DNA of 64,000 nucleotides from a virus (IMGVR_UViG_3300010413_000025:3192-67191); one strand, 5' to 3'. Numbered from the stretch's first letter, positions 24,556-42,953 are shown. The notes: a model not told the origin generated them from the letters alone. Translations and numbers: made by a program.

Positions 24556-24569
24556 GGCCGTCCGTGGCC
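24556..24569 (-). repeat. GGCCACGGACGGCC hairpin (CsrA/RsmA-type site), copy 1 of 7
   Basis: Also at 25094, 25708, 39132, 42128, 42641 and 42940; always intergenic. Confidence 0.75.
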
Positions 24570-24580
24570 GATCTTTAATT

Positions 24581-24988
24581 TTATTTTACGGTGTAGGGCT
24601 TGTTCCAGCGGCCCACGTTGATGTCGATGTACCACCCGACATGGAAATAGTCGGTCATGATGTCGGACTTGTCGAAGTTGCCCTGCATCATGGCGTCTTT
24701 CAGTTCGGTCAGGAACTGGCGGACTTCGCCGGTGTAGCCCCGGTCGATGTGGTACGTGTTCACGTCAATGTAGCCGTCGGCCAGATTCACTTCGTGGCCC
24801 ATCATTTCGGCCTGTTCCTTGCGGACCGCGTTAGCGTTCGCGACGATGTCCAGCTTGCCTTCCTTCAGGTTCACGACCAGCGTGCTGTGGTGGCGAACTG
24901 CGATGGTGCCCTTCATGCCGAATTTTTTCAGAACGGCCTTGATTGCAGGTGCCAGTTCAGCTTTGCGTTCTTGACTCATGTATGCCAT
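24581..24988 (-). CDS. Conserved phage early protein
   Basis: MAYMSQERKAELAPAIKAVLKKFGMKGTIAV...DKSDIMTDYFHVGWYIDINVG. Confidence 0.7.
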   Translation of the reverse strand: MAYMSQERKAELAPAIKAVLKKFGMKGTIAVRHHSTLVVNLKEGKLDIVANANAVRKEQAEMMGHEVNLADGYIDVNTYHIDRGYTGEVRQFLTELKDAMMQGNFDKSDIMTDYFHVGWYIDINVGRWNKPYTVK

Positions 24989-25025
24989 TTTCGTGTCCCC
25001 TTTCTGTGGTCGGTTTGTCGTGCTG

Positions 25026-25082
25026 TTACTTACCTTAACGACCATTATACAGAAACCTTTAGGCCCTGCAACAAAAAAATTT
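25026..25082 (-). promoter_or_regulatory. Repeated early promoter (sigma28 + sigma70 composite)
   Basis: TAAAGGTT-N11-GTCGTTAA overlapping TTGCAG-N16-TATAAT. Confidence 0.75.
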
Positions 25083-25093
25083 CATGTATTTGC

Positions 25094-25107
25094 GGCCGTC
25101 CGTGGCC
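25094..25107 (-). repeat. CsrA/RsmA-type hairpin
   Basis: GCGGCC-ACGGAC-GGCCGC. Confidence 0.7.
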
Positions 25108-25115
25108 GCCAGTTT

Positions 25116-25682
25116 TTAGTTGCAATCCAAGAACTTAGACAGCAGTTCCTTGTCAGCGCCCTGAACTTTCCGCACCTTGACCATCTTCGCGACGGTCAGC
25201 ATGTCGGCCAGTTTCGCTTCGTTCAGGTTCAGATCGGTGGCCTTTTCCAGCGCGGCCCGGATTGCCTTGAACGTGTCGCTGTTTGGGTCCTTGCACTGCG
25301 CGCGGAATGCCAGCTTCGCTTTTGTCTTCACCCGGCGGGCTGCCATGTCGGCGCAGTAGTTGGCGACGCCGTCATGGATGAACGTCCCGTGTGCGCCTTC
25401 GTATTCGTTCAGCGCGGCCCTGTACACGCGGTGCCCCAGCTTTTCCAGTGCCTTGTCGCCGCAGGACGCGTCGACCTTCATCCCGTACCGCTTGGCAAGG
25501 TGGCGCAGCTTCGACACCCAGCCGTCGCCGTCGTTGTAAACCCGGTAGTACGCGTTCTGGAACCGGCGCCAGTCTTCAAGCTTCGGGCGGTTCTTGTCCA
25601 GCACCTTGCCTTCGTGTGGAATGTCGATGTTCAGCAGTTCCACCATCGCTTCGCCAAAATTTGTATGCCAAAAAGAATTCAT
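25116..25682 (-). CDS. Hypothetical early protein
   Basis: NAYYRVYNDGD motif; SD present. Confidence 0.6.
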   Translation of the reverse strand: MNSFWHTNFGEAMVELLNIDIPHEGKVLDKNRPKLEDWRRFQNAYYRVYNDGDGWVSKLRHLAKRYGMKVDASCGDKALEKLGHRVYRAALNEYEGAHGTFIHDGVANYCADMAARRVKTKAKLAFRAQCKDPNSDTFKAIRAALEKATDLNLNEAKLADMLTVAKMVKVRKVQGADKELLSKFLDCN

Positions 25683-25707
25683 GTCGTTACCCTTTCGTTT
25701 AAGTTGG

Positions 25708-25721
25708 GGCCGTCCATGGCC
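25708..25721 (-). repeat. CsrA/RsmA-type hairpin
   Basis: GGCC-ATGGAC-GGCC. Confidence 0.7.
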
Positions 25722-25855
25722 GGGAAATTATCCTGTTGTTTAATCGGCCCAGACGTAGTCCGGGTGCGTTGCCAGCGTGATTTCGGTCACTTCCACGCCG
25801 TCTTCGTTGGTGTACATGTTTTCGTACCAGACAGTCCGGGTTATGCAGCAGTAGT

Positions 25856-26125
25856 TCATGCCAGCACCTGCACGCGGGCTTCGTCGGTGTAGTCGCTGTC
25901 TTCGTCGAAGATTTCCATCGGCACGTTGACGATCAGGCCGACGCGGTTGTGGTCGCCCAGAAACGTGGCGTCCTTCGTGCAGCGAACGGTCAGGAAGTCA
26001 GCAAACCCGTCGGTGGTGCGGCCTTCCACGACACCTTCGAAGTACATCGGGCGGCGTTCGGGGAACGGCGGATGGTCGAAAGCTTTGATCGTCTGGCCAT
26101 TCTGGATGTGTTCGTATTTCAGCAT
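25856..26125 (-). CDS. Hypothetical early protein (SH3-like)
   Basis: Repeated leader AGAAAGGGGACACGAAAATG. Confidence 0.6.
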   Translation of the reverse strand: MLKYEHIQNGQTIKAFDHPPFPERRPMYFEGVVEGRTTDGFADFLTVRCTKDATFLGDHNRVGLIVNVPMEIFDEDSDYTDEARVQVLA

Positions 26126-26166
26126 TTTCGTGTCCCCTTTCTGGTTTCAGTTGCCTTACAGTATGT

Positions 26167-26213
26167 TTAACGGCTGGTCGGGCTAATCCTTTAGCCCTAT
26201 TTCGAAAAAATTT
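26167..26213 (-). promoter_or_regulatory. Repeated early promoter (sigma28-type only)
   Basis: CTAAAGGAT-N11-GCCGTTAA with upstream A/T tract. Confidence 0.7.
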
Positions 26214-26537
26214 TTAGAATGTCCAGTTACCGTTTCCGTCGCTTTCGTAGAAGGCTTCGAAGCTTTTCACGTGCGGGTAGTTGGCGCCGATCAGGAAGGG
26301 TTTCGCTTCCAGATTCATGCCGGTCTGGCCGGGCACGATGCGGTCGTTCACCACAGGGTTGTCGACCCAGATCAGGCCCTTTTGCGTCAGCTGGCCCACA
26401 TAGCCCGCGTACTGACGGTCGGTCAGGCCCAGCGCCTTGTAGTCGATTTCGTCGGTAAAGCCGAAGTCGCCGCCGTTGTTCATCATGTTGTCAGCCAGCG
26501 CCAGCAGTACGTTCAGTTCGGTGGTGTTCAGTTTCAT
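26214..26537 (-). CDS. Winged-helix-like early protein
   Basis: LGLTDRQYAGYVGQLTQKGLIWV. Confidence 0.55.
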   Translation of the reverse strand: MKLNTTELNVLLALADNMMNNGGDFGFTDEIDYKALGLTDRQYAGYVGQLTQKGLIWVDNPVVNDRIVPGQTGMNLEAKPFLIGANYPHVKSFEAFYESDGNGNWTF

Positions 26538-26567
26538 TTCGTTTCCCCTTTCTGGTTTCGGTCGGTG

Positions 26568-26624
26568 TTACTTAACTTAACGACCACAGTACAGGAAACT
26601 TTAGGGCATTGCAACAAAATTTTT
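26568..26624 (-). promoter_or_regulatory. Repeated early promoter (sigma28 + sigma70 composite)
   Basis: TAAAGTTT-N11-GTCGTTAA overlapping TTGCAA-N17-TACTGT. Confidence 0.75.
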
Positions 26625-26725
26625 CTGTTGCACCGAATGCAGGGCGGTCGGGGTCGGCGGCGGGTCGGGAATGGGCAGGATGTCGCCGCACCCCGCCACG
26701 ATCAGAATTGCCAGCAGGGCGCCCA

Positions 26726-27037
26726 TCAGTGGCGCGTGGGCGGGTTTTCGAACCCGGGCGGCGTGTCGGTCCCGGTGTCCTTGATGTCGCCCCAGTCCAT
26801 CCCCTGCGCGGCGTGCGCGATAGCCTGAAGTTGTTCGAACAGGTCGGGGTCGGCGAATGCCTTCGCGATGCCTTCCAGCAGATACGCGTGCGGCGGCTGT
26901 TCTTCGCTGTCATCGACCGGGTACAGGGCCATCACGCCCACTTCGCCGTCAGCTGCGACCGTCAGGGCCGTTTCCTGCCGGTCTTGATCCAGCATGACGC
27001 CCACCTTGCCACCATCAAATTCAACCATCTTCGCCAT
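26726..27037 (-). CDS. Hypothetical protein
   Basis: ATG 27037 with GGGGGA SD. Confidence 0.5.
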   Translation of the reverse strand: MAKMVEFDGGKVGVMLDQDRQETALTVAADGEVGVMALYPVDDSEEQPPHAYLLEGIAKAFADPDLFEQLQAIAHAAQGMDWGDIKDTGTDTPPGFENPPTRH

Positions 27038-27038
27038 G

Positions 27039-27752
27039 TCAGTTCCCCCAGTTTTCGCGTACCCACGGGTCGGGCACTTCGTGCGGGTCCGGCTTGCCGT
27101 GGAACACGACCACGCGCGCGTCCTTCGGCAGGCCCTTTCCCCGGCAGTGGTACTTGTAGGACACCACAAACCGGCGTTCGAAATTGGCTATGCTGTCCCG
27201 CAGTATGCGCCAGATCGCGCACTGGTCGCCGTGAAGCTTCGCCATGGCGCGTTCATCGTTCGCTTCGAATGTCCGGAACAGCCTGTGAATGTCCGGGTCC
27301 GTTACGTCGAACAGCATCGCGGACGAATTGTGCGCGCAGTGCGCCTTGTTGGGCGAAAAGTTTTCGACCATGATCAGGGGCTGGTCAGCCACTGCCCGAA
27401 CAATCGGGTCCAGTGAACCGGTCAGGACCACGTCAAGGTCCAGATACAGCGTTTTCCCGCCGGGCATAATTTCCGGGTTGAACATGTTGAACTTTTGCCA
27501 CCATGTGCCCCATTCGTTCATCGGCAGGATTCGCGTCACGCCGTCCGGAACTTCGTCGTCGGTGATGCAAAACATGTCCCAGCGAACTGTCGCGGGCATA
27601 CAGCAGGCCACAGAATCGCGCAGCCGGGCGACATACTTCGGGGAATACTTCGGCCCCCACTTCACGCAAACGACGTTCACGTGGTAGGGCTGCGGCCCCT
27701 GTTCGGCCCAGATCGGCGGGTTAAGGTTCGGCAGCGTCAGGTCCATGATCAT
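27039..27752 (-). CDS. GT-A glycosyltransferase (GT8-like)
   Basis: VVCVKWG.KY...WWQK...LYLDLDVV (DxD), NSSAM, GDQ, VVFHGKPDP. Confidence 0.85.
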   Translation of the reverse strand: MIMDLTLPNLNPPIWAEQGPQPYHVNVVCVKWGPKYSPKYVARLRDSVACCMPATVRWDMFCITDDEVPDGVTRILPMNEWGTWWQKFNMFNPEIMPGGKTLYLDLDVVLTGSLDPIVRAVADQPLIMVENFSPNKAHCAHNSSAMLFDVTDPDIHRLFRTFEANDERAMAKLHGDQCAIWRILRDSIANFERRFVVSYKYHCRGKGLPKDARVVVFHGKPDPHEVPDPWVRENWGN

Positions 27753-28432
27753 TTCCCCGGGACAAAGATCAGGTCGCGGTGAATCGACGCGTGCAGCTTG
27801 TAGCCCATCACGTCGACCAGCCAGCGTTCGGATGCGCCCACGCGGTGCCCGGTTTCCCGGTCCTGCGGCAGCGCCTTTTCTTCGATCATAATCACGGGCT
27901 GGTTCGTTTCGATCAGTTTCCGCGCACCCTTCAGTGCCTTCAGTTCCAGTCCTTCGATGTCCAGCTGGATCAGGCCCACGGGTCCCACGATGTCGCCAGA
28001 CGCCACCAAATCGTCCAGTCGGTATACGGGGACCTTTTCAGCGCCCGGACTTGGGATGCCTTCCTTCACTTCCTTGATGTAGTAGGCGCCAGCGTTCGAA
28101 ATTTCACTGGGCGGCAGCTTCACTTCGCCGTAGCCCATGTGATCAGACAGCGCGCCACGGATCGGCGTCACGTTCGTGCGGTCTTCCAGATTCGTGGACA
28201 GGCACGCGAAGTTTTCGCGGTCGGGTTCGAACGTGTACACGTGGTGGAATTCTTTCGACATGACCCACGGCCACACGCCCATGGCCCCGCCCGCCTGAAT
28301 GGCGACCGATGCGCCCGGTTCTGCGACTGCGTCCATGGCCACGTTCAGGTCGTTAATCCAGCTGTTGACCTGTATCAGTTTCGTGTCTTCCTGATTCCAG
28401 CGCCACGATTTGCCTAAAAATGAAATCATCAT
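27749..28432 (-). CDS. FkbM-family methyltransferase
   Basis: IQAGGAMGVW, YTFEPD, IQLDIEGLELKALKGA...PVIMIE. Confidence 0.88.
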   Translation of the reverse strand: MMISFLGKSWRWNQEDTKLIQVNSWINDLNVAMDAVAEPGASVAIQAGGAMGVWPWVMSKEFHHVYTFEPDRENFACLSTNLEDRTNVTPIRGALSDHMGYGEVKLPPSEISNAGAYYIKEVKEGIPSPGAEKVPVYRLDDLVASGDIVGPVGLIQLDIEGLELKALKGARKLIETNQPVIMIEEKALPQDRETGHRVGASERWLVDVMGYKLHASIHRDLIFVPGK

Positions 28433-29082
28433 AATATTTCGTCCAGTTCTGCGGTTTCGAAAAAGTCCAGCGCCGAATCCGGCGTGCAGTTGATTATACG
28501 CACCCCTAGCGCGTCCGTGTCAATGGTCCGGAATACTTTCAGCAGGCCGGTGAATTCGCCGTTCGGCCCCACCTTCGGCCAGTGTTGCAGGGCCTTCGGA
28601 TATTCGCCGAAATAGTGGCGCCCCTGCCCCGCCTTGTGCTTCGCCCGGTCATAGCCCGGCAGGTAGCGCATGTCGTAGCCGATCAGGATGAAATTCCGGG
28701 CGCCGTAGTGGTAGGCCAAATTCAGGATTTGAAACCCGGACGCATGGCCGTAGTGGATGTAGCCGGGGTCGGTCGAAAAACTGTCGCCCCACTTGCCCGG
28801 AATGTAGTTGATCCCGTAGCGGTCGGCCGTTGCCTTGTCCCACGTCCACTTGTCAGCCTTCGAATCACGCAGGGCCGCGCTGTCCTTGTAGTGGTCCCAC
28901 CATTCGATGTTGCAGGCCATGTGCACGTCCAGCGGCGTTACCATAACAGCATTGTTCACCCCGAACACCCGGCACTGGTTCTGCTGCCGCGCGTAGCGCA
29001 CGCGTTCCAGCTGTTCGACGGTAAGGGAAGGGCCGGTGCCGATGATCACGGCCGGATAGTCAGCGAAATTTTTGAAGGGCAT
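28429..29082 (-). CDS. Maf/DUF115 (CMP-sugar transferase-like) glycosyltransferase
   Basis: IIGTGPSL, GVNN, SGFQILNLAY..GA..ILIGYDM, HYFG, IINCT. Confidence 0.75.
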   Translation of the reverse strand: MPFKNFADYPAVIIGTGPSLTVEQLERVRYARQQNQCRVFGVNNAVMVTPLDVHMACNIEWWDHYKDSAALRDSKADKWTWDKATADRYGINYIPGKWGDSFSTDPGYIHYGHASGFQILNLAYHYGARNFILIGYDMRYLPGYDRAKHKAGQGRHYFGEYPKALQHWPKVGPNGEFTGLLKVFRTIDTDALGVRIINCTPDSALDFFETAELDEIL

Positions 29083-29884
29083 CTGTCAGACTCATTTTAG
29101 GGAACATGTTCAGCGCCGTGTTCGGCGTCGCGTTGACGATTTCAATCCCGTAGTCTTCGGGCTTTATCGTCGCATAATTTTGAACGAATCCGGTGTATCC
29201 ACCGTTCCGCGCCAGTCCTTCAGGATGATCACCGAAAAAATGCTTTTTGTTGTTCACCACGCGCATGTTGTAGCCGCACAAAATAATTCGGTTAATCCCG
29301 AACAGGTAGGCCAGATTTATAAGCTGGTAGCCGCTGTTGTTTCCGAAATGGATCAGGTCCTGCTTTCTCGACAGTCCCTTTGCCCCGCAGCCTTTGATCC
29401 GCCGCAGGCCCGGGAACTGCGATTGCGGCATGTTCGGTTCCTGCGTCCACATTCCATGCGTGGTTTCGTATTCGCGGATATGTTCGAAGTGTTTCCGCCA
29501 CCATGCGAAATCGCAGGCATAGTGGACGTTCAAGTACGGCGCGATGCGATAGGCGTCATTGCACCCGAACAGGTAAAGTTCCTGCGTCAGCCGGGCGGCC
29601 ATGATTTCGTCCATAACTTCGGGGGTCAGGCCGGGGCCGGTCGCCATCAGGACGGCCGCCTTGCCTTCGAAATCCCGGGGAATGGTTTCCGGCTTGATGG
29701 GGTCCGGCGGTGGGCTGCGCCTGTGCTGTCCGCGAACGCCAGCGGCCTGACGGGGCTGTGCCTTCGCGGGAAGGTCCTTGATCAGGGAAACAGGCCCGGG
29801 CGCCGCAGACGGCCCCAGCTTCGGCCGCAGGTGGCGGTCTTCCGCTGTAGCACGAATATTTTTCAGTCGCTGCAAGCGAATCAA
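29060..29884 (-). CDS. Second Maf/DUF115-like glycosyltransferase (paralogue)
   Basis: LMATGPGL, GCND, NSGYQLINLAYLFG...LCGYNM, HFFGDHP, IVNAT. Confidence 0.75.
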   Translation of the reverse strand: MIRLQRLKNIRATAEDRHLRPKLGPSAAPGPVSLIKDLPAKAQPRQAAGVRGQHRRSPPPDPIKPETIPRDFEGKAAVLMATGPGLTPEVMDEIMAARLTQELYLFGCNDAYRIAPYLNVHYACDFAWWRKHFEHIREYETTHGMWTQEPNMPQSQFPGLRRIKGCGAKGLSRKQDLIHFGNNSGYQLINLAYLFGINRIILCGYNMRVVNNKKHFFGDHPEGLARNGGYTGFVQNYATIKPEDYGIEIVNATPNTALNMFPKMSLTDALQKFR

Positions 29885-31827
29885 TGTGCTTCCGCCCAGT
29901 TCGCGCCGTGGTCGCTGCTGACCAGCAGGGGAACCCGCAGCTGGTACACGTCTTTCATCATTCTGGCCGCTTCAGCGTGCGCCTGAACGGCTTGCGGGGT
30001 TTGGGGGACCGACCAGTTCAGTTCGTCGTGAACGGTCAGCAGCGGCGGCCCCATGAAGTCACACACGCCAGATTCCCAGATATTGACCATTGCAAGTTTC
30101 ATCAGATCGGCCGCGCTTCCCTGCATTAGTGCGTTCAGGGCTGCGTACCCGAACGCCCGTTTCACGCCATGTTTACCCCACGCCAGCACCGCGTCGTCGT
30201 ACAGCAGCGGGGTCGGCTTGTTGTCCTTGTAATTATACCCGAATTTTCCATAGTCGCGCGGTTCCCACAGATCGAACCGGCGGCGGCGCCCCAGCAGGGT
30301 CATGATGTAGCCCCGATTTTCGGCCACCCGGGACACATTCCGCATCAGTGCCTTGATGAACGGCAGCCGGGCGTGGTACATCGCAAAAATTTCTTCGGCT
30401 TTTTCGCGGGTTACGCCCAGCTGACGGGCCAGCTTTTCGATGCCCATCCCGTAGCCCAGCCCAAAATTGATATTTTTCGCCGGTTTGCGGTCGATCCCGG
30501 TTATGCTGGCGACGTAGTCGTGGAAATCGGTCGTCGGGTCTTCCCTGTATGCCCGCTGCGTAGCTTCGGCCGACTTTCCGGTGCCGTAGTGGACCAGTTC
30601 GCGGAATTCGATCTGCGACCAGTCGTCGCTGTACCAGACTTCGTCCGGTTCCGGAATAAACATGGACCGCATCAGCGGCCCCAGTTCTTCGTCCCGGGCA
30701 GGGATGTTTTGCAGGTTCGGGTTCGATGAACTGAATCGGCCGGAAACCGTCCCGTTGCTGTCGGTCTTCAGCTGGTGGAATTGCGTATGCACCCGGCCGT
30801 CGACGGCGTTTCCCAGCACCGCCCCCTGAATGAACGTGGTCACGGTCTTGTCATACTTGCGCGCTTCGACCAGCTTCCGCAGTCGCGGGTCTTCGTGCTT
30901 TTCCAGCCACAGCGCCGTGAAGGATGGTTTCTTTGTCTTCGCGGTCAGGGGGTATTCGATGCCGGACCTGTCGCACATTTTCGCGACCTGTTCCGCGTTC
31001 CAAATATCCGGAATGCCGATGTCCTTACAGATTTGAATTTTCCGTGCGGTCAGGTCGTCCGTCGCGCGCTGCGCGTTCGCTTCGTCGACTTTGACGCCAC
31101 GGCGCCGCATGGACAGCATCATAGGCATAAGCCGTTTTTCAATGTCCCAGACGCGCCCTAGTTCCTGTTCTTCGATGATCGCCAGCTGTTTGCGAATAAT
31201 CTGCTGCGGCAGTGTCACGTCGGCGATTGCATACGGCGCCGCTATTTCCGGCGGGCACCGATAGATATTTTTCCGCTGATCCCGTTCCTTGCCATAGGTC
31301 CGGTTCAGCCAGTCTTCCATGTCGGATTTTTCCTTGCCGATGCCCAGATACTTGAACGACTGCCGGTCCAGCGAAAAACTGTGCTGGTTTTCGTCAATCA
31401 GCGGTTCCGCAATCTGGATGTCGAAATATGGCCCCGGGACCTGCACGCCTTCTTCCCACAGGTAGTCCAGATCGTACAGCAGGTTCGCGCCGATCTTCGG
31501 GACGCCTTTCAGGCATAGATTCCGCTGTGCCCATGCCATAACGTGTTCGCGCAGGTAGCCGACGCCGTTCGGATTGTATTCAAGGTCGTGCCGTATCGGC
31601 AGGTAAAAGGCTGCGTCTTCGGTGGCCACGGAAATTCCGACGATATAGCCGCCAGTTCGCACGCCGGGTCCCTTTGTCTTCAGGTCCGGATCATACGTTT
31701 CGGTGTCAATGGTCAGTTCTTTGGCCGCTGCCAGATTGAAATCATTCAGCGACTGGAATCGCAGCTTGTTCGTCCACTCCCGATATTTTTCGGGGATTTC
31801 CTGATACCGGGGATGCTTAAACGCCAT
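29881..31827 (-). CDS. polA: Family A DNA polymerase with 3'-5' exonuclease
   Basis: IDTET ExoI, GTVSGRFSS, DWSQIEFR (A), KNINFGLGYG (B), TVHDE (C). Confidence 0.95.
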   Translation of the reverse strand: MAFKHPRYQEIPEKYREWTNKLRFQSLNDFNLAAAKELTIDTETYDPDLKTKGPGVRTGGYIVGISVATEDAAFYLPIRHDLEYNPNGVGYLREHVMAWAQRNLCLKGVPKIGANLLYDLDYLWEEGVQVPGPYFDIQIAEPLIDENQHSFSLDRQSFKYLGIGKEKSDMEDWLNRTYGKERDQRKNIYRCPPEIAAPYAIADVTLPQQIIRKQLAIIEEQELGRVWDIEKRLMPMMLSMRRRGVKVDEANAQRATDDLTARKIQICKDIGIPDIWNAEQVAKMCDRSGIEYPLTAKTKKPSFTALWLEKHEDPRLRKLVEARKYDKTVTTFIQGAVLGNAVDGRVHTQFHQLKTDSNGTVSGRFSSSNPNLQNIPARDEELGPLMRSMFIPEPDEVWYSDDWSQIEFRELVHYGTGKSAEATQRAYREDPTTDFHDYVASITGIDRKPAKNINFGLGYGMGIEKLARQLGVTREKAEEIFAMYHARLPFIKALMRNVSRVAENRGYIMTLLGRRRRFDLWEPRDYGKFGYNYKDNKPTPLLYDDAVLAWGKHGVKRAFGYAALNALMQGSAADLMKLAMVNIWESGVCDFMGPPLLTVHDELNWSVPQTPQAVQAHAEAARMMKDVYQLRVPLLVSSDHGANWAEAH

Positions 31828-33154: not shown

Positions 33155-33400
33155 CTTTTAGCCTTTTCAGTTCTTCGCGTAGTTGTCGCACACGTTCCAC
33201 TTGCATTCGGTATACCTTGCCCAGATACCCGCCGCCTTCCATCAGGCATTCGTGCGCCTTCAGCAGTCGGGCCTTTTCGTCGTCATCGTCGTTCGTCGTC
33301 ATCTGGTGTCCCCGGGCACGGCTTGCGCGCCGCCTTCCGGGTCGCCTTGTTCTTCAGCAGGATCAGTCCGCATTTGCGGCAAACTGGCCAGCTGAAAATT

Positions 33401-34791: not shown

Positions 34792-34985
34792 TGCGCGTCC
34801 CCCCGTCGTAGAATGTACCGAACGCAGCGAACCGGGCACTTGCACCGGCCGCCGCCACCGTCGCAGATTTCGATTGCCAGTGCGCGGGCTTTCTGCGGTT
34901 CTGTTATTCGGTCTTCATTGATCCACACGTGCGTTTCAGTATTGAACGGCGCGTGGTAGTGATAAATTGGCAGGCGTTCAGTCAT
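34788..34985 (-). CDS. Small Cys-rich protein
   Basis: C...RCKCPVRC; overlaps both neighbours. Confidence 0.45.
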   Translation of the reverse strand: MTERLPIYHYHAPFNTETHVWINEDRITEPQKARALAIEICDGGGGRCKCPVRCVRYILRRGDAQ

Positions 34986-35713: not shown

Positions 35714-36714
35714 TGTGCTAACGGGACCCGCTTCAGTTTGCGGACGTTGCTGTTGAATGTCGCCTGCGTGACTTCCTTCCCTGCCCGTGCGTAATTCCAC
35801 GCGACAATGTAGGCTTTCATCAGTTCGCGAACATAGTCACGGTGCCGCCCTTTTGCGATAGCGCGCTGGTTTCTATCTTCCCGATGTTCTTCGGATTTAG
35901 CCTTAGACGCAGCGGCGTAGTCCCTAGCATACCGGAAACATGTGTTCGGACGATTGTCGTCTGTGGCCATCCAGTTGGCTACAATGTCGGTAAGTTTCGG
36001 GTCTATTTTGGTCCATTCGTACAGCAAAAACACCACTGCCGAATAAGGTCCGTTCCCGGTCTGACGATAGCGCAAGGCCGCGTCGTGGTACTTTTCACGG
36101 GTAGCCGGAAGATCATTGAACGACGCACGAATTGCGTCAGCAATATTTCCTTCCGATTCGCGCAGTCCCGCTTCCGGATTAGTCAGCGGGTCGCCAGTCA
36201 AGCCACGGCGCCACAGGTACCGACCAGTGCGTGCAAGGTCAGACGTGTACGTTTGCCAGCCGCCCTTGTTCCCCTGATCTTCGATGTACAAAATGTCCTT
36301 AACATCGCGTGAATTGCCTTGGTCAAAGTGCCGGAATGCGGCGTATGGAACATCGAATACAGCCCAAAATGATTGGGCCTTGCCAGCTTTGATAACAGCT
36401 TCCAGCCTGTGCTGCCCGTCGATCAGTATCTGCTTTCCGTCCAATATGCTGAATTTCAGCAGTTCGAATGTATCAGTGAACCACCGACCTTCGCGGATGT
36501 CATTCGCATACGTCGCGATACTTGCCCGTGCTTCTGCGCGATTATAAAACCCGGCTTCCGCTGTTTCCTTGAGTATTTTTTCAGCTTGTTCCGGTGTAAT
36601 AACTACAGTAAGGATCGTTCGCCTTTCACCGGCAGGTTTCAGGTCGTACGAATTGCCCCGACTGATAGGGGTCACGTTGTTAATAGGATTTATTTTGTCT
36701 TTCATCGTCAGCAC
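35710..36714 (-). CDS. ParB/Srx-like (DGQHR) domain protein
   Basis: ITPEQA..IL, NR, YANDIREGRW, LIDGQHRLEAV, DQG..R. Confidence 0.75.
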   Translation of the reverse strand: MLTMKDKINPINNVTPISRGNSYDLKPAGERRTILTVVITPEQAEKILKETAEAGFYNRAEARASIATYANDIREGRWFTDTFELLKFSILDGKQILIDGQHRLEAVIKAGKAQSFWAVFDVPYAAFRHFDQGNSRDVKDILYIEDQGNKGGWQTYTSDLARTGRYLWRRGLTGDPLTNPEAGLRESEGNIADAIRASFNDLPATREKYHDAALRYRQTGNGPYSAVVFLLYEWTKIDPKLTDIVANWMATDDNRPNTCFRYARDYAAASKAKSEEHREDRNQRAIAKGRHRDYVRELMKAYIVAWNYARAGKEVTQATFNSNVRKLKRVPLAQ

Positions 36715-36802
36715 TCCCGTGGTTTGACGTATTACAATATGGGCATTTATGACTGTGCGGATTCGCTGCGTCTAGCCCGGTTTATCCCTTTCGGGGAATT
36801 CT

Positions 36803-37375
36803 TTAGCGCCTTATCGCGCCTTTCGTTTTTTCTTCGTCGAACATCACGCCGCAGTATTCCAAAGCTTCGCGAATCTGCGTGAAGTCTCCCTGAATCAGTC
36901 GGTCGGTGTCAACCCAGACGCCGCCGTATTGCTGGTGCAGGATTTTCATTTGCAGGTACCGCCATTCGGCCGCCTTGCGCGCCATTTCCGGGTCGGCGTT
37001 TCGTCGCTTGTCGCAGATTGATTTCACCACGGCTTCGGGGTCGCGAACTATGAACACATTGAACGGATTCAGCGGACGGAATACATGGAAATATTCGATT
37101 CCGGTTTTCATCATCCACGGCCTGTCGCTGGGGGTTACCCCCTGAATATCGCGAAGGCACGGTGGAACATTCGGTTCGTCGATAGCTGGCAGGGTGCAGA
37201 ATGGCAGGCCGAAATACTGTTTCAGAATCGCCTTGATCTGCTGATTTTCGAACGTGTCATACCCGGCGGACTGCTGCTGCCGGTTTCCCCAGTACAGGCC
37301 GTGCGCGGCGAATATTGCTGCCACCATGCTAGATCGGCTGCGGCTTGTCATCCATAGCAAAATCGGGCTGTGCAT
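36803..37375 (-). CDS. Sulfotransferase-like protein
   Basis: LWMTSRSRSSMVA (PAPS 5'-phosphosulfate-loop-like), IVRDPEAVVKS. Confidence 0.65.
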   Translation of the reverse strand: MHSPILLWMTSRSRSSMVAAIFAAHGLYWGNRQQQSAGYDTFENQQIKAILKQYFGLPFCTLPAIDEPNVPPCLRDIQGVTPSDRPWMMKTGIEYFHVFRPLNPFNVFIVRDPEAVVKSICDKRRNADPEMARKAAEWRYLQMKILHQQYGGVWVDTDRLIQGDFTQIREALEYCGVMFDEEKTKGAIRR

Positions 37376-37661
37376 CGGGTCCCCCCATGTGCGCTATTTG
37401 ATTGTCCAGCTGTAACTGTGTGTCCTGAAACAGCTGCATGAAAGTGTCGGCAAATACTGGCAAGGTCAGGCGGCCCTGTCCAGTCTTCGACTGTACCTGC
37501 GTCATCAGGACGGCCAGTACGTCGACAGCCCCTGCCAGATAGTCCAGCCGCCGAATGTGGTAGTCGTCCGAATCCATGGGCGCCCCGTCCATTTGCGACG
37601 TTATGTGCCGATCCCATGCTTCGGCCAGTGTTTCCATTATCGGTCCGGTTGTCGCTGTCAT
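37329..37661 (-). CDS. Hypothetical protein
   Basis: ORF track. Confidence 0.55.
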   Translation of the reverse strand: MTATTGPIMETLAEAWDRHITSQMDGAPMDSDDYHIRRLDYLAGAVDVLAVLMTQVQSKTGQGRLTLPVFADTFMQLFQDTQLQLDNQIAHMGGPDAQPDFAMDDKPQPI

Positions 37662-37842
37662 GTTATAAAATCCCCGGAAAATATAACCTTTAAGGTATAA
37701 GCCCGGGTTCCATCCCGGGCCGATTTTAGTTAGGTTTCTGATCGGTTAGCTATTCATTCAAAGCCCCCCTGCGTGTAGTTCAACGGTTATTAAGGCAGCC
37801 ACCCGTTCGGACAGTAGGCGCCTTCCGTGGCGCCCCTGTCAA

Positions 37843-38592
37843 TTACGCGGCCAGTTCCACCACGCTGTCGGTCAGCAGGTGAAGCTTTTCCGTCTTGCGG
37901 ACGATGTCCACCACGTTCGTGCCCTTCAGGGCTTCGGTCGCGGCGTTGAACATGCGCCACGCCGACCGGCCTGTGCGGGTGAACGAATCGTGGTCGGGCG
38001 CGTCCCACTGCTGGACCAGCTTCGGGAACCGGTGGGCGTTCATGATGCCCTGACGCAGCATTTCGACCATGATGTGTTCGGCTTCGAACGTGGCCAGCTG
38101 GCGCGACTTATAGGCTTCGAACCGGGTGTTCTGGAATTCCGCCTTGTTCACCATCTGACCGATTGAACCAGCGACGATTTCGGGCAGGTCCAGAAGGATG
38201 TTGCCGGATTCGCCCGCCGTATGCTTGCGCACGGCCTTGACTTCGCCGCTGAACGACAGGTTGTCGCATACGAACACGCTTGCGCCGATTGCGATGCCAG
38301 CCCCGAACCGCTTCGAATGACTGTTACGCATTCCGACCATCAGGGCGTAGTCCTGCGTCGTCAGGTTTTTGCCTTCGACTTCGAACATGCCGAAATAGTC
38401 ACGGCCGCCGTTGTTCAGGCCGTGGACCTGATCGGCGATGGTGAAACCGCGTTCAGCCAGCTTGCTTTCGACCAGATCAACGAAATAGTCGTGGCCTATC
38501 GGCTGGTAGGTCTTCGTCGACGCGGGCAGCGTCGGGTTCGACAGTTCCGAACGATTCACCTTTTTCGAACCACAGTGCAGAATAATAGACAT
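37843..38592 (-). CDS. DUF932-family protein
   Basis: TYQPIGH, MRNSHSK, VFVCDNL, RKHT, SAWRMFNAATEALK. Confidence 0.8.
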   Translation of the reverse strand: MSIILHCGSKKVNRSELSNPTLPASTKTYQPIGHDYFVDLVESKLAERGFTIADQVHGLNNGGRDYFGMFEVEGKNLTTQDYALMVGMRNSHSKRFGAGIAIGASVFVCDNLSFSGEVKAVRKHTAGESGNILLDLPEIVAGSIGQMVNKAEFQNTRFEAYKSRQLATFEAEHIMVEMLRQGIMNAHRFPKLVQQWDAPDHDSFTRTGRSAWRMFNAATEALKGTNVVDIVRKTEKLHLLTDSVVELAA

Positions 38593-38623
38593 GTTGTTTC
38601 CCCTTTCTCAGTTGACGATTTGA

Positions 38624-38653
38624 AGTTTACAGCGGCATTCACGCTGCTGTCAA
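38624..38653 (-). promoter_or_regulatory. sigma70-like promoter
   Basis: TTGACA-N18-TAAACT with upstream A/T tract. Confidence 0.6.
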
Positions 38654-38686
38654 TAAATTTTTCGGCAGTACCACCGTTTCCTTTAG

Positions 38687-38908
38687 CTAAATCAGGAAAA
38701 AATGTTTGTCGTTGCGAATCTTCACCCAGCGCGATGCGCGGTCCCGACTGTCACCTTCCAGCAGTGAATCCGGCGCCACCAGTGCGTGCTGTCCCTTCGC
38801 GAATGCCACGTTGTCGACCCGCAGAATGGTCCAAATATCGCCCCATTCCTTGATGATCTGGCGGCCCTTCGCCGTTTTTGCTTCCAGTCGTACAGTGTTC
38901 GGTTTCAC
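38687..38908 (-). CDS. Hypothetical early protein
   Basis: GTG start overlapping the upstream stop. Confidence 0.45.
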   Translation of the reverse strand: MKPNTVRLEAKTAKGRQIIKEWGDIWTILRVDNVAFAKGQHALVAPDSLLEGDSRDRASRWVKIRNDKHFFLI

Positions 38909-39117
38909 GCGTTTTCCCCTTTCAAAAGTTTTTCGGCGACCGCGCGGCTGATATTGCGCGCGCCGATGCTGAAGTATGCCCGGGTCTTGTCCACGCCGTT
39001 TTTCGACCGCGTGATAAGCTGGCACTCCACGTTTCCGCAGGCTGAATGCTGGCGGTACCCATCGCAATGGATTCCCGGCTGTTTGCGTGCGGCTTCGATC
39101 ATTTCGGTAGTATTCAT
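38905..39117 (-). CDS. Hypothetical early protein
   Basis: Repeated SD leader. Confidence 0.55.
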   Translation of the reverse strand: MNTTEMIEAARKQPGIHCDGYRQHSACGNVECQLITRSKNGVDKTRAYFSIGARNISRAVAEKLLKGENA

Positions 39118-39131
39118 TTCGTTTCCCCTTT

Positions 39132-39145
39132 GGCCGTCCGTGGCC
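39132..39145 (-). repeat. CsrA/RsmA-type hairpin abutting the SD
   Basis: GGCCACGGACGGCC-AAAGGGGAAACGAAATG. Confidence 0.7.
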
Positions 39146-39152
39146 GGTCAGT

Positions 39153-39374
39153 TTAGATTTCGGTCCAGCTGTCTTTTTCCAGTTTGACGCCGTCGTTCAG
39201 CATTTCCTGAAGGACCATGGCGTTTTCGGCGGCGTTGCCCGGGCAGCCCCACAGGGCCTTCGCTGCCCACTGGCGCCCCTTGCGGTTCTGGACGACAGTC
39301 GCGAACATGTCGGCGTCGGCATCTTCGAAAATTTCCTGCGCGGGCCGGACGATCACTTTGAATTTCAGTTCCAT
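39153..39374 (-). CDS. Hypothetical early protein
   Basis: Repeated SD leader. Confidence 0.55.
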   Translation of the reverse strand: MELKFKVIVRPAQEIFEDADADMFATVVQNRKGRQWAAKALWGCPGNAAENAMVLQEMLNDGVKLEKDSWTEI

Positions 39375-39398
39375 TTCATTTCCCCTTTCTGGTCGGTG

Positions 39399-39455
39399 TT
39401 ACTTAATTTAGCGACCACCTTACAGGAAACTTTAGCCTGCCGCAACAAATTTTTT
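39399..39455 (-). promoter_or_regulatory. Repeated early promoter (sigma28 + sigma70 composite)
   Basis: TAAAGTTT-N11-GTCGCTAA overlapping TTGCGG-N17-TAAGGT. Confidence 0.75.
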
Positions 39456-39778
39456 CACTTTTCCCATACGTCGGTGGTCCCTTCGACCCAGCGGTGGCCG
39501 TAGCTGTCCACGAATGATACCCGGGCGGTCACGGTCCAGCGCACCGCGTATTCGTCGCGGCTGTATCCCGGTTCTGTGGTGCGAACCATCAGCCCGGCGT
39601 TCATCAGGTCGCCGAATGCCATGCTGCGCGCCCCAGCGACCCACAGGGCGGTCGTCACCGGCTGTTCCAGTGTCAGCGCAAGGATCACGCCCTTTCGCAG
39701 CAGACGCGCGGCCCTGCGCAGGCTGCGGGGGTGTTCCGGGCCGAAGTCGACCCATTCACCGTTCAGGAATGCAATCAT
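39455..39778 (-). CDS. Hypothetical early protein
   Basis: ATGA overlap. Confidence 0.5.
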   Translation of the reverse strand: MIAFLNGEWVDFGPEHPRSLRRAARLLRKGVILALTLEQPVTTALWVAGARSMAFGDLMNAGLMVRTTEPGYSRDEYAVRWTVTARVSFVDSYGHRWVEGTTDVWEK

Positions 39779-40023
39779 TTTTTGTCCCCTTCGAAAAACC
39801 ACAGGGCGTATACAGCGCCCTTTGTGTACGTCACGGTGCCCGTGTCGCCCACTTCCACGTCGTGCACCCCATTGAATGAACCGTTCACAAAAATGTGACC
39901 TTCACCCGCGTCGTCCACCGCCCGGGCGTACCCGGCGTAGTGCCGGGGATAGCCCCATTCGTCCTTCCGGGTCTGGTTCGGGACGACTTCGACGATTTCC
40001 GCCTTGCGCGTGGTGCCGATCAC
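39775..40023 (-). CDS. Hypothetical early protein (OB-like)
   Basis: ORF track. Confidence 0.5.
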   Translation of the reverse strand: MIGTTRKAEIVEVVPNQTRKDEWGYPRHYAGYARAVDDAGEGHIFVNGSFNGVHDVEVGDTGTVTYTKGAVYALWFFEGDKK

Positions 40024-40307
40024 GACAGCACCTGCACAGGGTAAAGTTCGCGGATTTTGTTCGCCATGGCGAATACGTGCTGGTCGTCGCTATCGCGAAC
40101 GTGCGACCAGTCCCACAGCAGGTCGGTCGACAGCCGGGCGCCTTTCAGGTCGCCGAACCCGTTCCCTTCCAGCCGGACTTTCGCCTGCTGCAAATCGTTC
40201 AGCAGCGTGCGGTGCTTCCCCTGATAGTGCAGGAAATCCACCACCAGCTGCCACGCTTCGTCGCGCTTGGTCATGAAGTCTTCCAGTTCTTTCAGTGTGT
40301 CGGTCAT
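40020..40307 (-). CDS. Hypothetical early protein
   Basis: AAGGGGA SD. Confidence 0.55.
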   Translation of the reverse strand: MTDTLKELEDFMTKRDEAWQLVVDFLHYQGKHRTLLNDLQQAKVRLEGNGFGDLKGARLSTDLLWDWSHVRDSDDQHVFAMANKIRELYPVQVLS

Positions 40308-40318
40308 GATCGTTCCCC

Positions 40319-40522
40319 TTAGTACAGGCCCGCCAGACGGCGGCGTTGCAGTTCGGCGTATGCGTAGTGCATTTCGTCGATGTAGTACCCGGCGTTTTCG
40401 CCTTCCGGGTTCGCTTCCGACGCTTCGCGCGCGTCCTGAATGATGAACCGCAGCTGGTCGATGCTTTTCCGCTTCAGGCCGCGCTGGTAGGCTGCGTGGT
40501 CCATTTTTTTCGCTGTTGCCAT
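40319..40522 (-). CDS. Hypothetical early protein
   Basis: MATAKKMD start after the repeated leader. Confidence 0.55.
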   Translation of the reverse strand: MATAKKMDHAAYQRGLKRKSIDQLRFIIQDAREASEANPEGENAGYYIDEMHYAYAELQRRRLAGLY

Positions 40523-40553
40523 GTCGTTTCCCCTTTCTGAATTTCGGCTGGTG

Positions 40554-40610
40554 TTACTTAACTTAGCGACCACCTTACAGGAACCTTTAGCCCGTTGCAA
40601 CAAATTTTTT
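40554..40610 (-). promoter_or_regulatory. Repeated early promoter (sigma28 + sigma70 composite)
   Basis: TAAAGGTT-N11-GTCGCTAA overlapping TTGCAA-N17-TAAGGT. Confidence 0.75.
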
Positions 40611-41179
40611 CAGTTTTCCCACAAATAAACCGCCGACAGCGCCCGCAGGAACAAATCCCGGTGTCCTTCGGTCAGGACTTCCAGCAGCTGCGCCTTTTCG
40701 CGCATGTACACCACCGCAAAATTCGGGTCGTACAGCGTTATCGACCGCGTGTTGTCCAGCAGGTCCGCCAGCTTGACCGTCTTCGCCATGGCCGACGCCT
40801 GCGCCGTGTGCGCCCGATCCAGTGCCTTGCGGGCTGCCCGGTTGCCGTCTTCCGGCGTACTAATATCGGTCAGCTGCTGAACCAGCCGGACCATGCTTGA
40901 CCCCAGCCCATGCTGTAACAGGTCAGTAGCGGTCACGTCGGTGTCTTCCAGCACGTCATGCAGGTAGGCCGCGCCTATCATATCCACGTCAGGGAAAACG
41001 CCCCCGACAAGCCGTGCGACAGCCACGGGGTGCGTCACGTAGGGTTCGCCGGTGTACTTGCGCACCTGCCCGGCGTGGGCTTCCACGGCGACCCGCAGGG
41101 CGGTGTCCAGCAGGTCCACCGAACGCGGGGCCACAGTGCAGTGCCATCCGTGGCCGTTCTTCAGTATATCGTCAGTCAT
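40610..41179 (-). CDS. HD-domain (p)ppGpp hydrolase-like protein (RelA/SpoT HD, small alarmone hydrolase)
   Basis: AHAGQVRKYTGEPYVTHP, AAYLHDVLEDT, LTD, VKLADLLDN. Confidence 0.85.
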   Translation of the reverse strand: MTDDILKNGHGWHCTVAPRSVDLLDTALRVAVEAHAGQVRKYTGEPYVTHPVAVARLVGGVFPDVDMIGAAYLHDVLEDTDVTATDLLQHGLGSSMVRLVQQLTDISTPEDGNRAARKALDRAHTAQASAMAKTVKLADLLDNTRSITLYDPNFAVVYMREKAQLLEVLTEGHRDLFLRALSAVYLWEN

Positions 41180-41190
41180 CAGTGTTCCCC

Positions 41191-41478
41191 TTAAATCAGT
41201 GCGTCCAGCGGGCCGCGCTTCATGTCGGCCACCACATTGTGATGGTAGCCGCTGCGGTCCTGATAAAAGCCCCGGCAGTCGTAGCCGTTGTTTCGGCGGC
41301 GGTCTTCCTGCGTGTGGTAGGTCTTCCCACCACAGCGAAAGCAAACCCCGCCCGGGCCTTTCGGCTTGCCGTTTTCCACGTACGTGATGAACTGGCCGGT
41401 GCCCGCACAGCGGCGGCAGTGGTGGTTCCCGGTCACGGTGTAGTCGTTGTCGATCACGCCTATGTTCTGAATTTTCAT
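41191..41478 (-). CDS. Zinc-finger protein
   Basis: CRRCAGTG...CFRCGG (DnaJ-like CxxCxGxG). Confidence 0.6.
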   Translation of the reverse strand: MKIQNIGVIDNDYTVTGNHHCRRCAGTGQFITYVENGKPKGPGGVCFRCGGKTYHTQEDRRRNNGYDCRGFYQDRSGYHHNVVADMKRGPLDALI

Positions 41479-41632
41479 TTCGGTTCCCCTTAGTACAGCG
41501 GTTTCATCGGACGGTTGCGGGCAGCCTTGAATTCGATCCAGAAAATCCCGGCTACTGCGGCGGTTCCGGCTACTACTGCAATCAGTGTCATGAATGTGGT
41601 CATTTCGTTTTCCTTTCTGATTTCGTGTGGTC

Positions 41633-41689
41633 TTACTTAACTTAACGACCACCTTACAGGAAACTTTAGCCCATTACAACAAATTTTTT
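41633..41689 (-). promoter_or_regulatory. Repeated early promoter (sigma28 + sigma70 composite)
   Basis: TAAAGTTT-N11-GTCGTTAA overlapping TTGTAA-N17-TAAGGT. Confidence 0.75.
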
Positions 41690-42104
41690 ACGCTTTGCGG
41701 CTGATCTTGTACATGCAGACGATTCGCTTCCGGCGGTTCTTTGACCAGTCTAGCACTTCGCTTCCGGCCACGGCGCCCAAGTGCCGCGAATAGCTGACAA
41801 TATAGCGGTCTGGGAATGCGCCCGGCTTTTCGGTCAGCAGGCGGTTCAGGGTCAGGCCGGTGCGGGCCGGGATTTGCGTCGCGTCGATTCGTTCCCATGT
41901 GTAGCCCAAAGATTCCAGCGCGTCCAGCGTTTGCCAGATAAAGGTCCCGTCCCGGGGCTTGCGGCCCTGACATTCCAGCGCGTAGTGGGCCATTTCGTAG
42001 CCTTCGCCAGTCGCTATCGCCAGCGCCTTTACTGCGCAGTCGTTGCGCTCGAAAAATTCGTTCGATGTTTCCATGACCTTTTCGTAAAGTTCGTAGGGTG
42101 TCAT
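41688..42104 (-). CDS. Papain-fold (C39-like) hypothetical protein
   Basis: NDCAVKALAIATG.GY...HLGAV...LDW. Confidence 0.55.
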   Translation of the reverse strand: MTPYELYEKVMETSNEFFERNDCAVKALAIATGEGYEMAHYALECQGRKPRDGTFIWQTLDALESLGYTWERIDATQIPARTGLTLNRLLTEKPGAFPDRYIVSYSRHLGAVAGSEVLDWSKNRRKRIVCMYKISRKA

Positions 42105-42127
42105 CTTTCTGTACCTTTCTGGTTTGG

Positions 42128-42141
42128 GGCCGTCCATGGCC
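42128..42141 (-). repeat. CsrA/RsmA-type hairpin
   Basis: GGGCC-ATGGAC-GGCCC. Confidence 0.7.
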
Positions 42142-42153
42142 CGGGGGTTCGTT

Positions 42154-42525
42154 TTAGGCTTCGTGGCGGTCGGCCATCCACTGTTTGTACCCGGCCTGCG
42201 TCTGCGGGTAACCGTCGGCCTTCAGCCACTTTTTGATGTGACTCAGGACGAAACCCTTCGACTGCACGATTTCCAGCGGGGTTTCACCAGCGGCCATGCG
42301 GCCCAGATATTCTTCGACGGTGAAGTTCTTGCAAAGGAAGGTGATCCACGGACCCTTGCTGCTGGTCGACGCGTACTTGAAGCGGGCAATAAAAGCGGGC
42401 TTCGCGATGCCTTCGCGGGTCGGGTGACAGGGCTGCGTGTAGTATTCAGTCATTTCGCCCTGTTCGCCGTTGTAGGTCAGGTAGCCGCCGTGGTAGCTGA
42501 AGTCGTCGCGGTTGAATTTGGTCAT
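42154..42525 (-). CDS. Conserved phage early protein
   Basis: F.YHGGYLTY...FIARFKY...FLCKNFTVEEY. Confidence 0.65.
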   Translation of the reverse strand: MTKFNRDDFSYHGGYLTYNGEQGEMTEYYTQPCHPTREGIAKPAFIARFKYASTSSKGPWITFLCKNFTVEEYLGRMAAGETPLEIVQSKGFVLSHIKKWLKADGYPQTQAGYKQWMADRHEA

Positions 42526-42561
42526 TTCGTTTCCCCTTTCTGATCTGGTTTGTGTTGCCGT

Positions 42562-42618
42562 TCACTTAACTTAACGGCAAGGTTACCGGAACCTTTAGGG
42601 CATTACAACAATTTTTTT
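42562..42618 (-). promoter_or_regulatory. Repeated early promoter (sigma28 + sigma70 composite)
   Basis: TAAAGGTT-N11-GCCGTTAA overlapping TTGTAA-N17-TAACCT. Confidence 0.78.
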
Positions 42619-42640
42619 CGTTTTTACCGAAAAAAGTTTG

Positions 42641-42654
42641 GGCCGTCCGTGGCC
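42641..42654 (-). repeat. CsrA/RsmA-type hairpin
   Basis: GGGCC-ACGGAC-GGCCC. Confidence 0.7.
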
Positions 42655-42663
42655 CGGTTCTTG

Positions 42664-42918
42664 CTACAGCCGGTCGATATTGTCCAGCAGCTTGCGGATC
42701 GCAGCCGTTCGGGCTTCGTCGCGCCGCAGCCAGACGCGTTCCGGCTTGTACCCGACGTGGTCGATGATCACGGCCCGGCCGTCGGAGTAGTATTTGTAGT
42801 CGCCGCGTGCGACACGTGTCACGCGCCCTTCCTTGATCTTCACGCCGCCGTCGCGGGTGTACACCATGACGTACACGGTCGTGCGGGGTTTCAGTTCGTC
42901 GAATTCTCTACCTTGCAT
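42664..42918 (-). CDS. Hypothetical early protein
   Basis: AAGGTGA SD. Confidence 0.55.
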   Translation of the reverse strand: MQGREFDELKPRTTVYVMVYTRDGGVKIKEGRVTRVARGDYKYYSDGRAVIIDHVGYKPERVWLRRDEARTAAIRKLLDNIDRL

Positions 42919-42939
42919 AGTATCACCTTTCTAGGTTGT

Positions 42940-42953
42940 GGCCGTCCATGGCC
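42940..42953 (-). repeat. CsrA/RsmA-type hairpin
   Basis: GGCC-ATGGAC-GGCC. Confidence 0.7.

Follow-up and report, generated by a model that had tools for sequence, protein, structure and literature searches.

The window analyzed here, a 64,000-nucleotide (nt) stretch of viral DNA (IMGVR_UViG_3300010413_000025:3192-67191) that covers the greater part of a virus record of 67,191 bp ending in direct terminal repeats, carries on its minus strand a set of short intergenic hairpins whose hexaloops follow the pattern AYGGAY. The minus strand holds open reading frames (ORFs) preceded by Shine-Dalgarno (SD) sequences, and in a strand check that covered minus-strand ORFs, 8 of the 10 large ones tested had Pfam matches, to families that include a tail protein, SNF2 and UvrD helicases, AEP primase, family A DNA polymerase, portal, and terminase. 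The pattern GGCCAYGGACGGCC has 7 exact matches in the window (Table 1), all on the minus strand, and none in 100 dinucleotide-preserving shuffles. Since the SD-preceded, Pfam-matching ORFs run on the minus strand as the copies do, the hairpins are in sense orientation, as a sequence-only reading of this DNA, which gave the same 7 positions, had held. The complete virus record contains these 7 copies and no further ones, with none for a backwards control, and allowing 2 mismatches adds 3 weak sites (41142, 43074, and 48692) against 2.46 expected. The hairpins are real and non-random.

The loops of the 7 copies are ACGGAC in 4 cases and ATGGAC in 3, all fitting AYGGAY, and a closing stem GCC..GGC is present in every copy. 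Minimum-energy folds give each of them as a single hairpin with a stem of 4-6 bp, a hexaloop, and unstructured flanks. Six copies stand 7-12 nt past a stop codon that ends an ORF of 73 or more amino acids (aa), and the earlier statement that all of them lie just after stop codons needs qualification for the copy at 25708, where the preceding ORF is only 39 aa long and its stop is 18 nt away. Five copies have an SD 1-18 nt downstream, which the copy at 39132 abuts, in agreement with the sequence-only reading, while behind those at 25094 and 42641 come a U-run and a promoter-like element instead. The ORFs around the hairpins are small and lie beside replication genes, which makes it plausible that the hairpin-bearing transcripts are early.

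Table 1. Hairpin copies and possible variants in the window (columns: feature, position, strand, context)
AYGGAY hairpin GGCC-ACGGAC-GGCC, extended to 6 bp	24556..24569	-	11 nt past stop of ORF 24581-25045; 18 nt before SD of ORF 24270-24524
AYGGAY hairpin GGCC-ACGGAC-GGCC, extended to 6 bp	25094..25107	-	8 nt past stop of ORF 25116-25682; then U-run and promoter-like element; no SD near
AYGGAY hairpin GGCC-ATGGAC-GGCC	25708..25721	-	18 nt past stop of 39-aa ORF 25740-25859; 13 nt before SD of ORF 25116-25682
AYGGAY hairpin GGCC-ACGGAC-GGCC	39132..39145	-	7 nt past stop of ORF 39153-39374; abuts SD of ORF 38905-39117
AYGGAY hairpin GGCC-ATGGAC-GGCC, 5 bp	42128..42141	-	12 nt past stop of ORF 42154-42525; 10 nt before SD of ORF 41688-42104
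AYGGAY hairpin GGCC-ACGGAC-GGCC, 5 bp	42641..42654	-	9 nt past stop of ORF 42664-42918; then U6 and promoter-like element
AYGGAY hairpin GGCC-ATGGAC-GGCC	42940..42953	-	7 nt past stop of ORF 42961-43323; 10 nt before SD of ORF 42664-42918
Possible variant copy CGCC-ACGGAA-GGCG (outer pair swapped, last loop base A)	37819..37832	-	shortly past stop of ORF 37843-38592; may be chance
Degenerate copy GGCCACGGATGGCA (outer pair lost)	41142..41155	-	about 24 nt inside start of HD-domain ORF; may be chance

GC-rich hairpins between genes could be transcription signals, either weak intrinsic terminators or antitermination sites of the nut/boxB kind. We consider this highly improbable. The copy at 42641 does have the look of a terminator, with GGGCC..GGCCC followed by AAACUUUUUU and a U6 that begins 3-5 nt downstream, but it is the sole window copy flagged as terminator-like on the sense strand; the terminator layout of a GC-rich stem directly followed by a U-tract was found in 1 of 7 copies, and the U-tract is missing in the other 6. 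The earlier claim that these hairpins lack a U-tail and are not terminators thus stands for 6 copies and fails for one. A U-run directly follows the hairpin in some of the other phages that carry it (L016 and L036), and C-rich, G-poor flanks resemble Rho loading sites; the count of terminator-like structures in the region is nevertheless 24, below the shuffle mean of 30.5. Sites of the boxB/nut type in phage lambda combine a 5-bp stem with a GNRA-like pentaloop, number about two per genome, lie after the early promoters, and are read by the phage N protein. The hairpins described here resemble them as small GC-stem structures with C-rich flanks on early phage transcripts that a protein would read, but they have hexaloops and precede successive cistrons, with up to 7 in 2.5 kb.

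The hairpin recurs in other phages. In a collection of viral contigs, the exact sequence GGCCACGGACGGCC has at least 120 matches, many of the listed ones being chance occurrences inside high-GC coding DNA. A large subset (GC 0.41 to 0.62) has a single architecture, in which a stop codon is followed by an A/C-rich run, the hairpin, a short run such as AYCAAC, an SD, and ATG. An 18-mer extended into the flank, which has almost no chance background, occurs at 37 viral loci, among them contigs as long as 300 kb and 366 kb, and a layout filter gives at least 51 viral loci as carriers. In bacterial genomes, the 18-mer has at least 120 matches; those listed are chance occurrences in high-GC coding DNA, none of them shows the module layout, and they carry no information on the host. 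The carriers are at most distant relatives of the window phage, with a portal about 27% identical to its own and few other proteins in common with it, and the identical 14-mer is found in phages whose proteins are only 22-47% identical. The other genomes checked have 1 to 4 copies, compared with 7 in the window phage, and 2 short fragments hold 6-7 copies within 2.5 kb.

The position of the hairpin relative to its neighbors varies little (n = 91), with a median of 8 nt from stop codon to hairpin (interquartile range [IQR] 6-9), a median of 8 nt from hairpin to SD (IQR 7-9), and, for the most part, 18-22 nt from hairpin to start codon. With only 5-6% G, the A/C-rich flanks are unstructured. The genes behind the hairpins are diverse small ORFs, so the element does not belong to any single gene. 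Among the carrier loci and the window, 15 unique cases, 2 of them in the window, lack an SD downstream of the hairpin. At L057 (2 copies), L020, and L103, the exact 14-mer opens a longer conserved repeat (about 60 nt) whose end is a terminator-like hairpin with a U-run, a context unlike the stop-hairpin-SD module.

An alignment of 59 unique strict-layout instances from 33 loci, with duplicate contexts removed, shows which bases are held constant. Positions 5 and 9 of the 14-mer are A in all 59, GGA at positions 7-9 is intact in 55, and position 10 is C in 55 and T in 4 but never a purine, while position 6 is C in 40, A in 14, T in 3, and G in 2. The stems are fully paired in every instance and read GGCC/GGCC in 52; the variants comprise 2 compensatory double changes (GGGC..GCCC and CGCC..GGCG) and 5 that keep G·U pairing on the sense strand only. 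The compensatory and G·U changes, along with the loop pattern, support a sense-strand RNA hairpin with a sequence-specific loop.

This conservation bears on the idea that the loop goes unread and that the hairpin is a purely structural mRNA element, such as a decay barrier, a protector of 3' or 5' ends after processing, or a spacer that leaves the ribosome-binding site downstream free of structure. Its constant feature is indeed its place about 8 nt past the stop codon, also in the 15 SD-less cases, and the G-poor, unstructured flanks would suit such a role. Even so, we regard the structural explanation as decidedly improbable, since a 4-bp stem is a weak barrier and since the invariant A5, G7, G8, and A9, the pyrimidine at position 10, and the preference for GGCC would all be left unexplained. 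Early mRNA of phage T7 has intercistronic processing hairpins for RNase III, an enzyme that needs stems of about 20 bp. The present hairpins are likewise repeated between the cistrons of a long phage transcript, but their stems are 4-6 bp and their loop is conserved in sequence.

The preference for GGCC emerged from a scan of viral contigs in which the same loop was combined with this stem or with 2 equally GC-rich alternatives. The strict layout is found in 20 of the 126 instances listed for GGCC..GGCC, compared with 1 of 121 listed for GGGC..GCCC (p about 1e-5) and 0 of 119 listed for GCGC..GCGC (p about 1e-6), a preference of about 20-fold among the instances listed. That GGCC is far commoner in the layout than equally stable stems indicates that the stem sequence itself is favored, and both alternative-stem scans rule out chance as the cause of the GGCC stem.

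The same module is known from a bacterial RNA. One Pseudomonas genome, found through a chance match, has 56 copies of GGCCAAGGATGGCC versus 1 for the backwards control, each forming the tip of a long repeat that folds strongly (-116 kcal/mol, z = -9). This repeat matches Rfam family RF01731, the TwoAYGGAY RNA (clan CL00106), with 44.7-53.3 bits against a gathering score of 43. In the RF01731 consensus line, cgcGCCaUGGAuGGCgcg, hairpin 2 is GCC-AUGGAU-GGC in conserved capitals, and the inner 12 nt of the phage 14-mer (G-GCC-AYGGAY-GGC-C) equal it. A hexaloop AYGGAY closed by GCC..GGC is therefore found in both the Rfam family and the phage element, and the Pseudomonas copies carry GGCC-AAGGAU-GGCC at their tip. 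The family differs in that a basal stem joins 2 hairpins, in many cases with long extensions, and that it forms dispersed intergenic repeats in bacteria, whereas the phage element is one 14-nt hairpin with a fixed place between stop codon and SD. The phage sites are not members of RF01731, as they are single hairpins and the window has no match to the model at E<=1, and so none at the gathering threshold of 43 bits; 16 viral loci contained no full TwoAYGGAY RNA and no Rfam family at gathering score. The phage element is best described as a variant of the AYGGAY module of TwoAYGGAY RNAs that consists of a single hairpin and lies between cistrons, a form for which no description was found in the literature searched by the 14-mer, CsrA plus phage, TwoAYGGAY, and AYGGAY.

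In 2010, Weinberg et al. (PMC2864571) included TwoAYGGAY, as a probable RNA, in a list that gives human gut, gamma-proteobacteria, and Clostridiales as its sources. The sequence-only reading had missed that its hairpin is that of this catalogued RNA, for which CsrA binding is itself only a prediction, with validation described as pending in a 2015 motif study (PMC4333381). A 2026 preprint reports 16,086 TwoAYGGAY matches in 1,148 of 1,324 Pseudomonas strains, finds divergent doublets frequent and the expansion mobile-element-like, and proposes the loops as Csr/Rsm sites while leaving the function unresolved (10.64898/2026.09.22.753630). The defining module and the stem preference are common to the phage hairpins and TwoAYGGAY, which argues for a common reader. 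As a separate observation, of the 3 CsrA-family genes in the Pseudomonas genome, one begins on the same strand as a TwoAYGGAY copy and about 300 bp downstream of it (G010:C1:1575278-1575749), a closeness with a chance of about 2% by rough estimate from 56 copies in 6.1 Mb.

Several features of the hairpins point to a protein of the CsrA/Rsm type. The RsmA/RsmF consensus is CANGGAYG with an invariant GGA in a stem-loop (10.1101/315341), and all 7 window copies fit it (CA-Y-GGA-C-G) with GGA in the hairpin loop, as the sequence-only reading had recognized. Apart from the few copies that have lost GGA, considered below, loop variation in the alignment is confined to the N and Y positions of CANGGAYG, as that consensus allows. 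According to figures taken from a review, in vitro ligand selection (SELEX) with Escherichia coli CsrA gave GGA in a hairpin loop in 51 of 55 ligands, hexaloops in 44, and stems that mostly had 4 or fewer pairs, and a CsrA dimer can bridge sites 10-63 nt apart (PMC7652899). The predicted hexaloops of the window copies on stems of 4-6 bp agree with this short-stem pattern (PMC7652899). Across the carrier loci and the window, a second GGA is often available at the SD: 52 of 59 unique hairpin-linked SDs contain GGA, compared with 373 of the 615 SD-bearing starts elsewhere in these loci (odds ratio 4.8, p = 1.4e-5), and the distance from loop GGA to SD GGA has a median of 17 nt (IQR 16-18), inside the bridging range of CsrA. 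The likeness to CsrA/RsmA hairpins covers the consensus and the hexaloop on a short stem and may extend to a second GGA within bridging distance at the SD. From these sequence patterns, the element is a candidate portable operator of the CsrA/Rsm type that would anchor the protein 17 nt from a GGA-containing SD, and we put this at close to, though below, an even chance.

The protein would more probably come from the host. A search with PF02599 (E<=1) gave no match in this phage, and no CsrA gene was found in 3 carrier genomes, so a phage-encoded CsrA is rejected as the reader. The window and the complete 34-kb carrier genome G002 have only head genes in common by BLAST (E<1e-4), which together with the lack of a phage CsrA gene favors a conserved host reader.

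A number of observations weigh against CsrA/Rsm. The preference for GGCC exceeds the published CsrA rules, which do not require that stem; known CsrA/RsmA sites tolerate many stem sequences, whereas nearly all the phage copies have GGCC, and E. coli CsrA SELEX has ACA where the phage hairpins have CCA. GGA is lost in 4 of the 59 aligned copies (AAAGAC twice, AATCAC, and ACAAAC) although stem and position are kept. In the window, 2 of the 7 hairpins have no SD nearby, and only 2 of the 5 SDs adjoining a hairpin contain GGA. Since all the carriers were detected through an exact copy, the count of ACGGAC is inflated. Arrays are absent from 10 named phages, 5 of them distantly related to the window phage and 5 to carriers, and these include phages of hosts likely to have CsrA; Xp12 is the only one of the 10 with an exact copy, and it has just one.

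Some of these points would be accounted for by a different, dedicated protein, whether a host factor or an undetected phage protein, that reads the GGCC stem and the AYGGAY loop together. An endoribonuclease or a binding protein specific to the hairpin, for example, could cleave or insulate polycistronic mRNA at cistron boundaries, a role that the place of the hairpins between successive cistrons would suit. A dedicated reader would fit a stem constrained beyond pairing, as found in the scans with alternative stems, the conservation of GCC..GGC in TwoAYGGAY hairpin 2, and the retention of stem and position in copies that have lost GGA. We consider it unlikely nonetheless, since the loop varies exactly within the CsrA/Rsm consensus and since window and G002 have only head genes in common. 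A 93-aa protein with an arginine-rich N-terminus (23577-23858, minus strand) is common to the window and 5 carrier loci but absent from G002, G005, and G008, and its absence from complete carrier genomes rules it out as a universal binder of the hairpin. This protein belongs to phrog_8676, of unknown function; it is 42-47% identical to the 5 carrier-locus versions and has only 10 homologs in a large protein collection, none of them named.

Alternatively, the repeats could act at the DNA level, as junctions for the gain, loss, or exchange of gene cassettes or as a selfish mobile repeat, with no RNA function. At L056, a 929-bp block of 2 genes (537-1465) is bounded by hairpin modules and is missing from L120, the rest being 97-99.8% identical, which indicates that the hairpin repeats do serve as recombination seams, whatever their primary role. 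The diversity of the small ORFs downstream and the identity of the 14-mer in phages with such dissimilar proteins would also fit, as would the mobile-element-like expansion of the bacterial RNA reported in the preprint (10.64898/2026.09.22.753630). We judge this explanation improbable because the strict sense orientation, the sense-only G·U pairs, the fixed spacing to stop and SD, and the GGA-enriched SDs indicate constraint at the RNA level, and because a single indel is a consequence of the repeats rather than their purpose. A transposase of the Y1/RAYT type (PF01797), as expected for REP/REPIN elements, had no match at E<=1 in any of the 4 viral genomes searched.

Returning to the CsrA/Rsm-type operator, we tentatively propose that the hairpin is a portable translational operator of many unrelated phages, which would put small early genes under a host Csr/Rsm-type protein and would also act as a seam for cassette swapping; this broader claim is possible, with the balance leaning against it. 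The 14-mer would be transcribed within the polycistronic phage mRNA and would fold into a GC stem of 4-6 bp with an A-Y-G-G-A-C hexaloop, to be read by a conserved host protein of the CsrA/RsmA family. A CsrA dimer would be anchored to the hairpin by one face and would touch the SD, about 17 nt downstream, with the other, and while free CsrA is abundant, translation of the next small gene would be lowered. The hairpin would be melted by a ribosome that terminates at the stop codon, about 8 nt upstream, and the block could thereby be relieved, which would couple the cistrons. Many hairpin copies on abundant mRNAs could in addition titrate the CsrA-family protein, and the sponge effect of phage mRNAs that the sequence-only reading had suggested is possible but found no support.

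TwoAYGGAY RNAs are abundant in Pseudomonadota, and neither a function nor a partner has been demonstrated for them. In the phages, the motif is pared down to a single 14-nt hairpin whose translational context is defined and whose spacing is fixed, which offers a simple testable substrate. If the reader is CsrA/Rsm, many phages would tie small early genes to a global regulator of the host or drain that regulator; if it is something else, the GGCC preference would point to an RNA-binding factor common to phages and bacteria. Should the portable operator be real, the hairpin would be the smallest working unit of TwoAYGGAY RNA, a family whose role has stood open since 2010, and an RNA of just 14 nt would suffice to identify the protein partner of the family.

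Short repeats before phage genes have a precedent in the start-associated sequences (SAS) and extended SAS (ESAS) of cluster K mycobacteriophages, conserved elements that are repeated just upstream of many translation starts and of which some contain inverted repeats. The phage hairpin is also a short conserved repeat just before translation starts; it differs in sequence and hosts, and SAS are genome- or cluster-specific, whereas the hairpin is common to very distant phages.

The promoter-like element that follows 2 of the window hairpins has the form TAAAGGTT-N11-GYCGTTAA, with 2 exact occurrences. It belongs to a longer conserved element of about 60 nt, made up of an A-tract, TTGTTGCA, CTAAAGGTT, N11, and GTCGTTAAGTTAAGT, which has 4 copies on the minus strand, near 25054 (25035-25061), 26596, 40582, and 42590 (42571-42597), and a weaker fifth near 37685. 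Its core resembles the sigma-28 (FliA) consensus. The sequence-only reading had combined such a promoter with CsrA sites into the control logic of flagellin genes and a link to the host motility circuit. That proposal found no support: only 2 of the 4 copies adjoin a hairpin, which indicates that the 2 elements are independent, and nothing links the phage to a motility circuit of the host. A second hairpin with a GGA hexaloop, GCCCGGG-ATGGAA-CCCGGGC at 37704-37717 (minus strand), lies past the DUF932 gene in the same intergenic region as the possible variant copy of Table 1, and both could be diverged relatives of the element or chance.

The phage itself has no close named relatives by megablast of a 20-kb region against a collection of named phages. 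Its polymerase is at most 43% identical to those of named phages, and its portal is about 40% identical to the portals of Bordetella, Xanthomonas, Pseudomonas, Stenotrophomonas, and Variovorax siphoviruses. Among viral contigs, a search based on UvrD gave no relative and one based on PolA gave a single one (L008, PolA about 50% identical), the only uncultured relative found, which lacks the hairpin. L008 has an intergenic element of its own in 3 copies (15255, 16645, and 18429), consisting of AAAGTGTGTCCGACCGCAC followed by promoter-like hexamers, and this element occupies places where the window phage has hairpins and sigma-28-like elements. No tRNA genes were found in the phage. The DNA sequencing runs that contain it are labeled marine sediment metagenome, and no RNA run is listed among the runs containing it. 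Contigs of 2 of the DNA runs aligned to the region mostly as identical low-depth pieces or short unlike ones and gave no comparative signal.

Two further minus-strand genes of the window are of note. A 244-aa protein (40610-41344) has an HD_4 domain of the RelA/SpoT-type HD hydrolase family (Pfam E = 5.9e-15) and, judging from this domain, may be a phage (p)ppGpp hydrolase; a relative of it is present in carrier L090. A primase-like protein (45479-47050) has a match (E = 3.7e-19) to the Pfam domain AEP-TOTE, whose family takes its name from a conflict system, and adjoins the UvrD and SNF2 helicases in the replication module.

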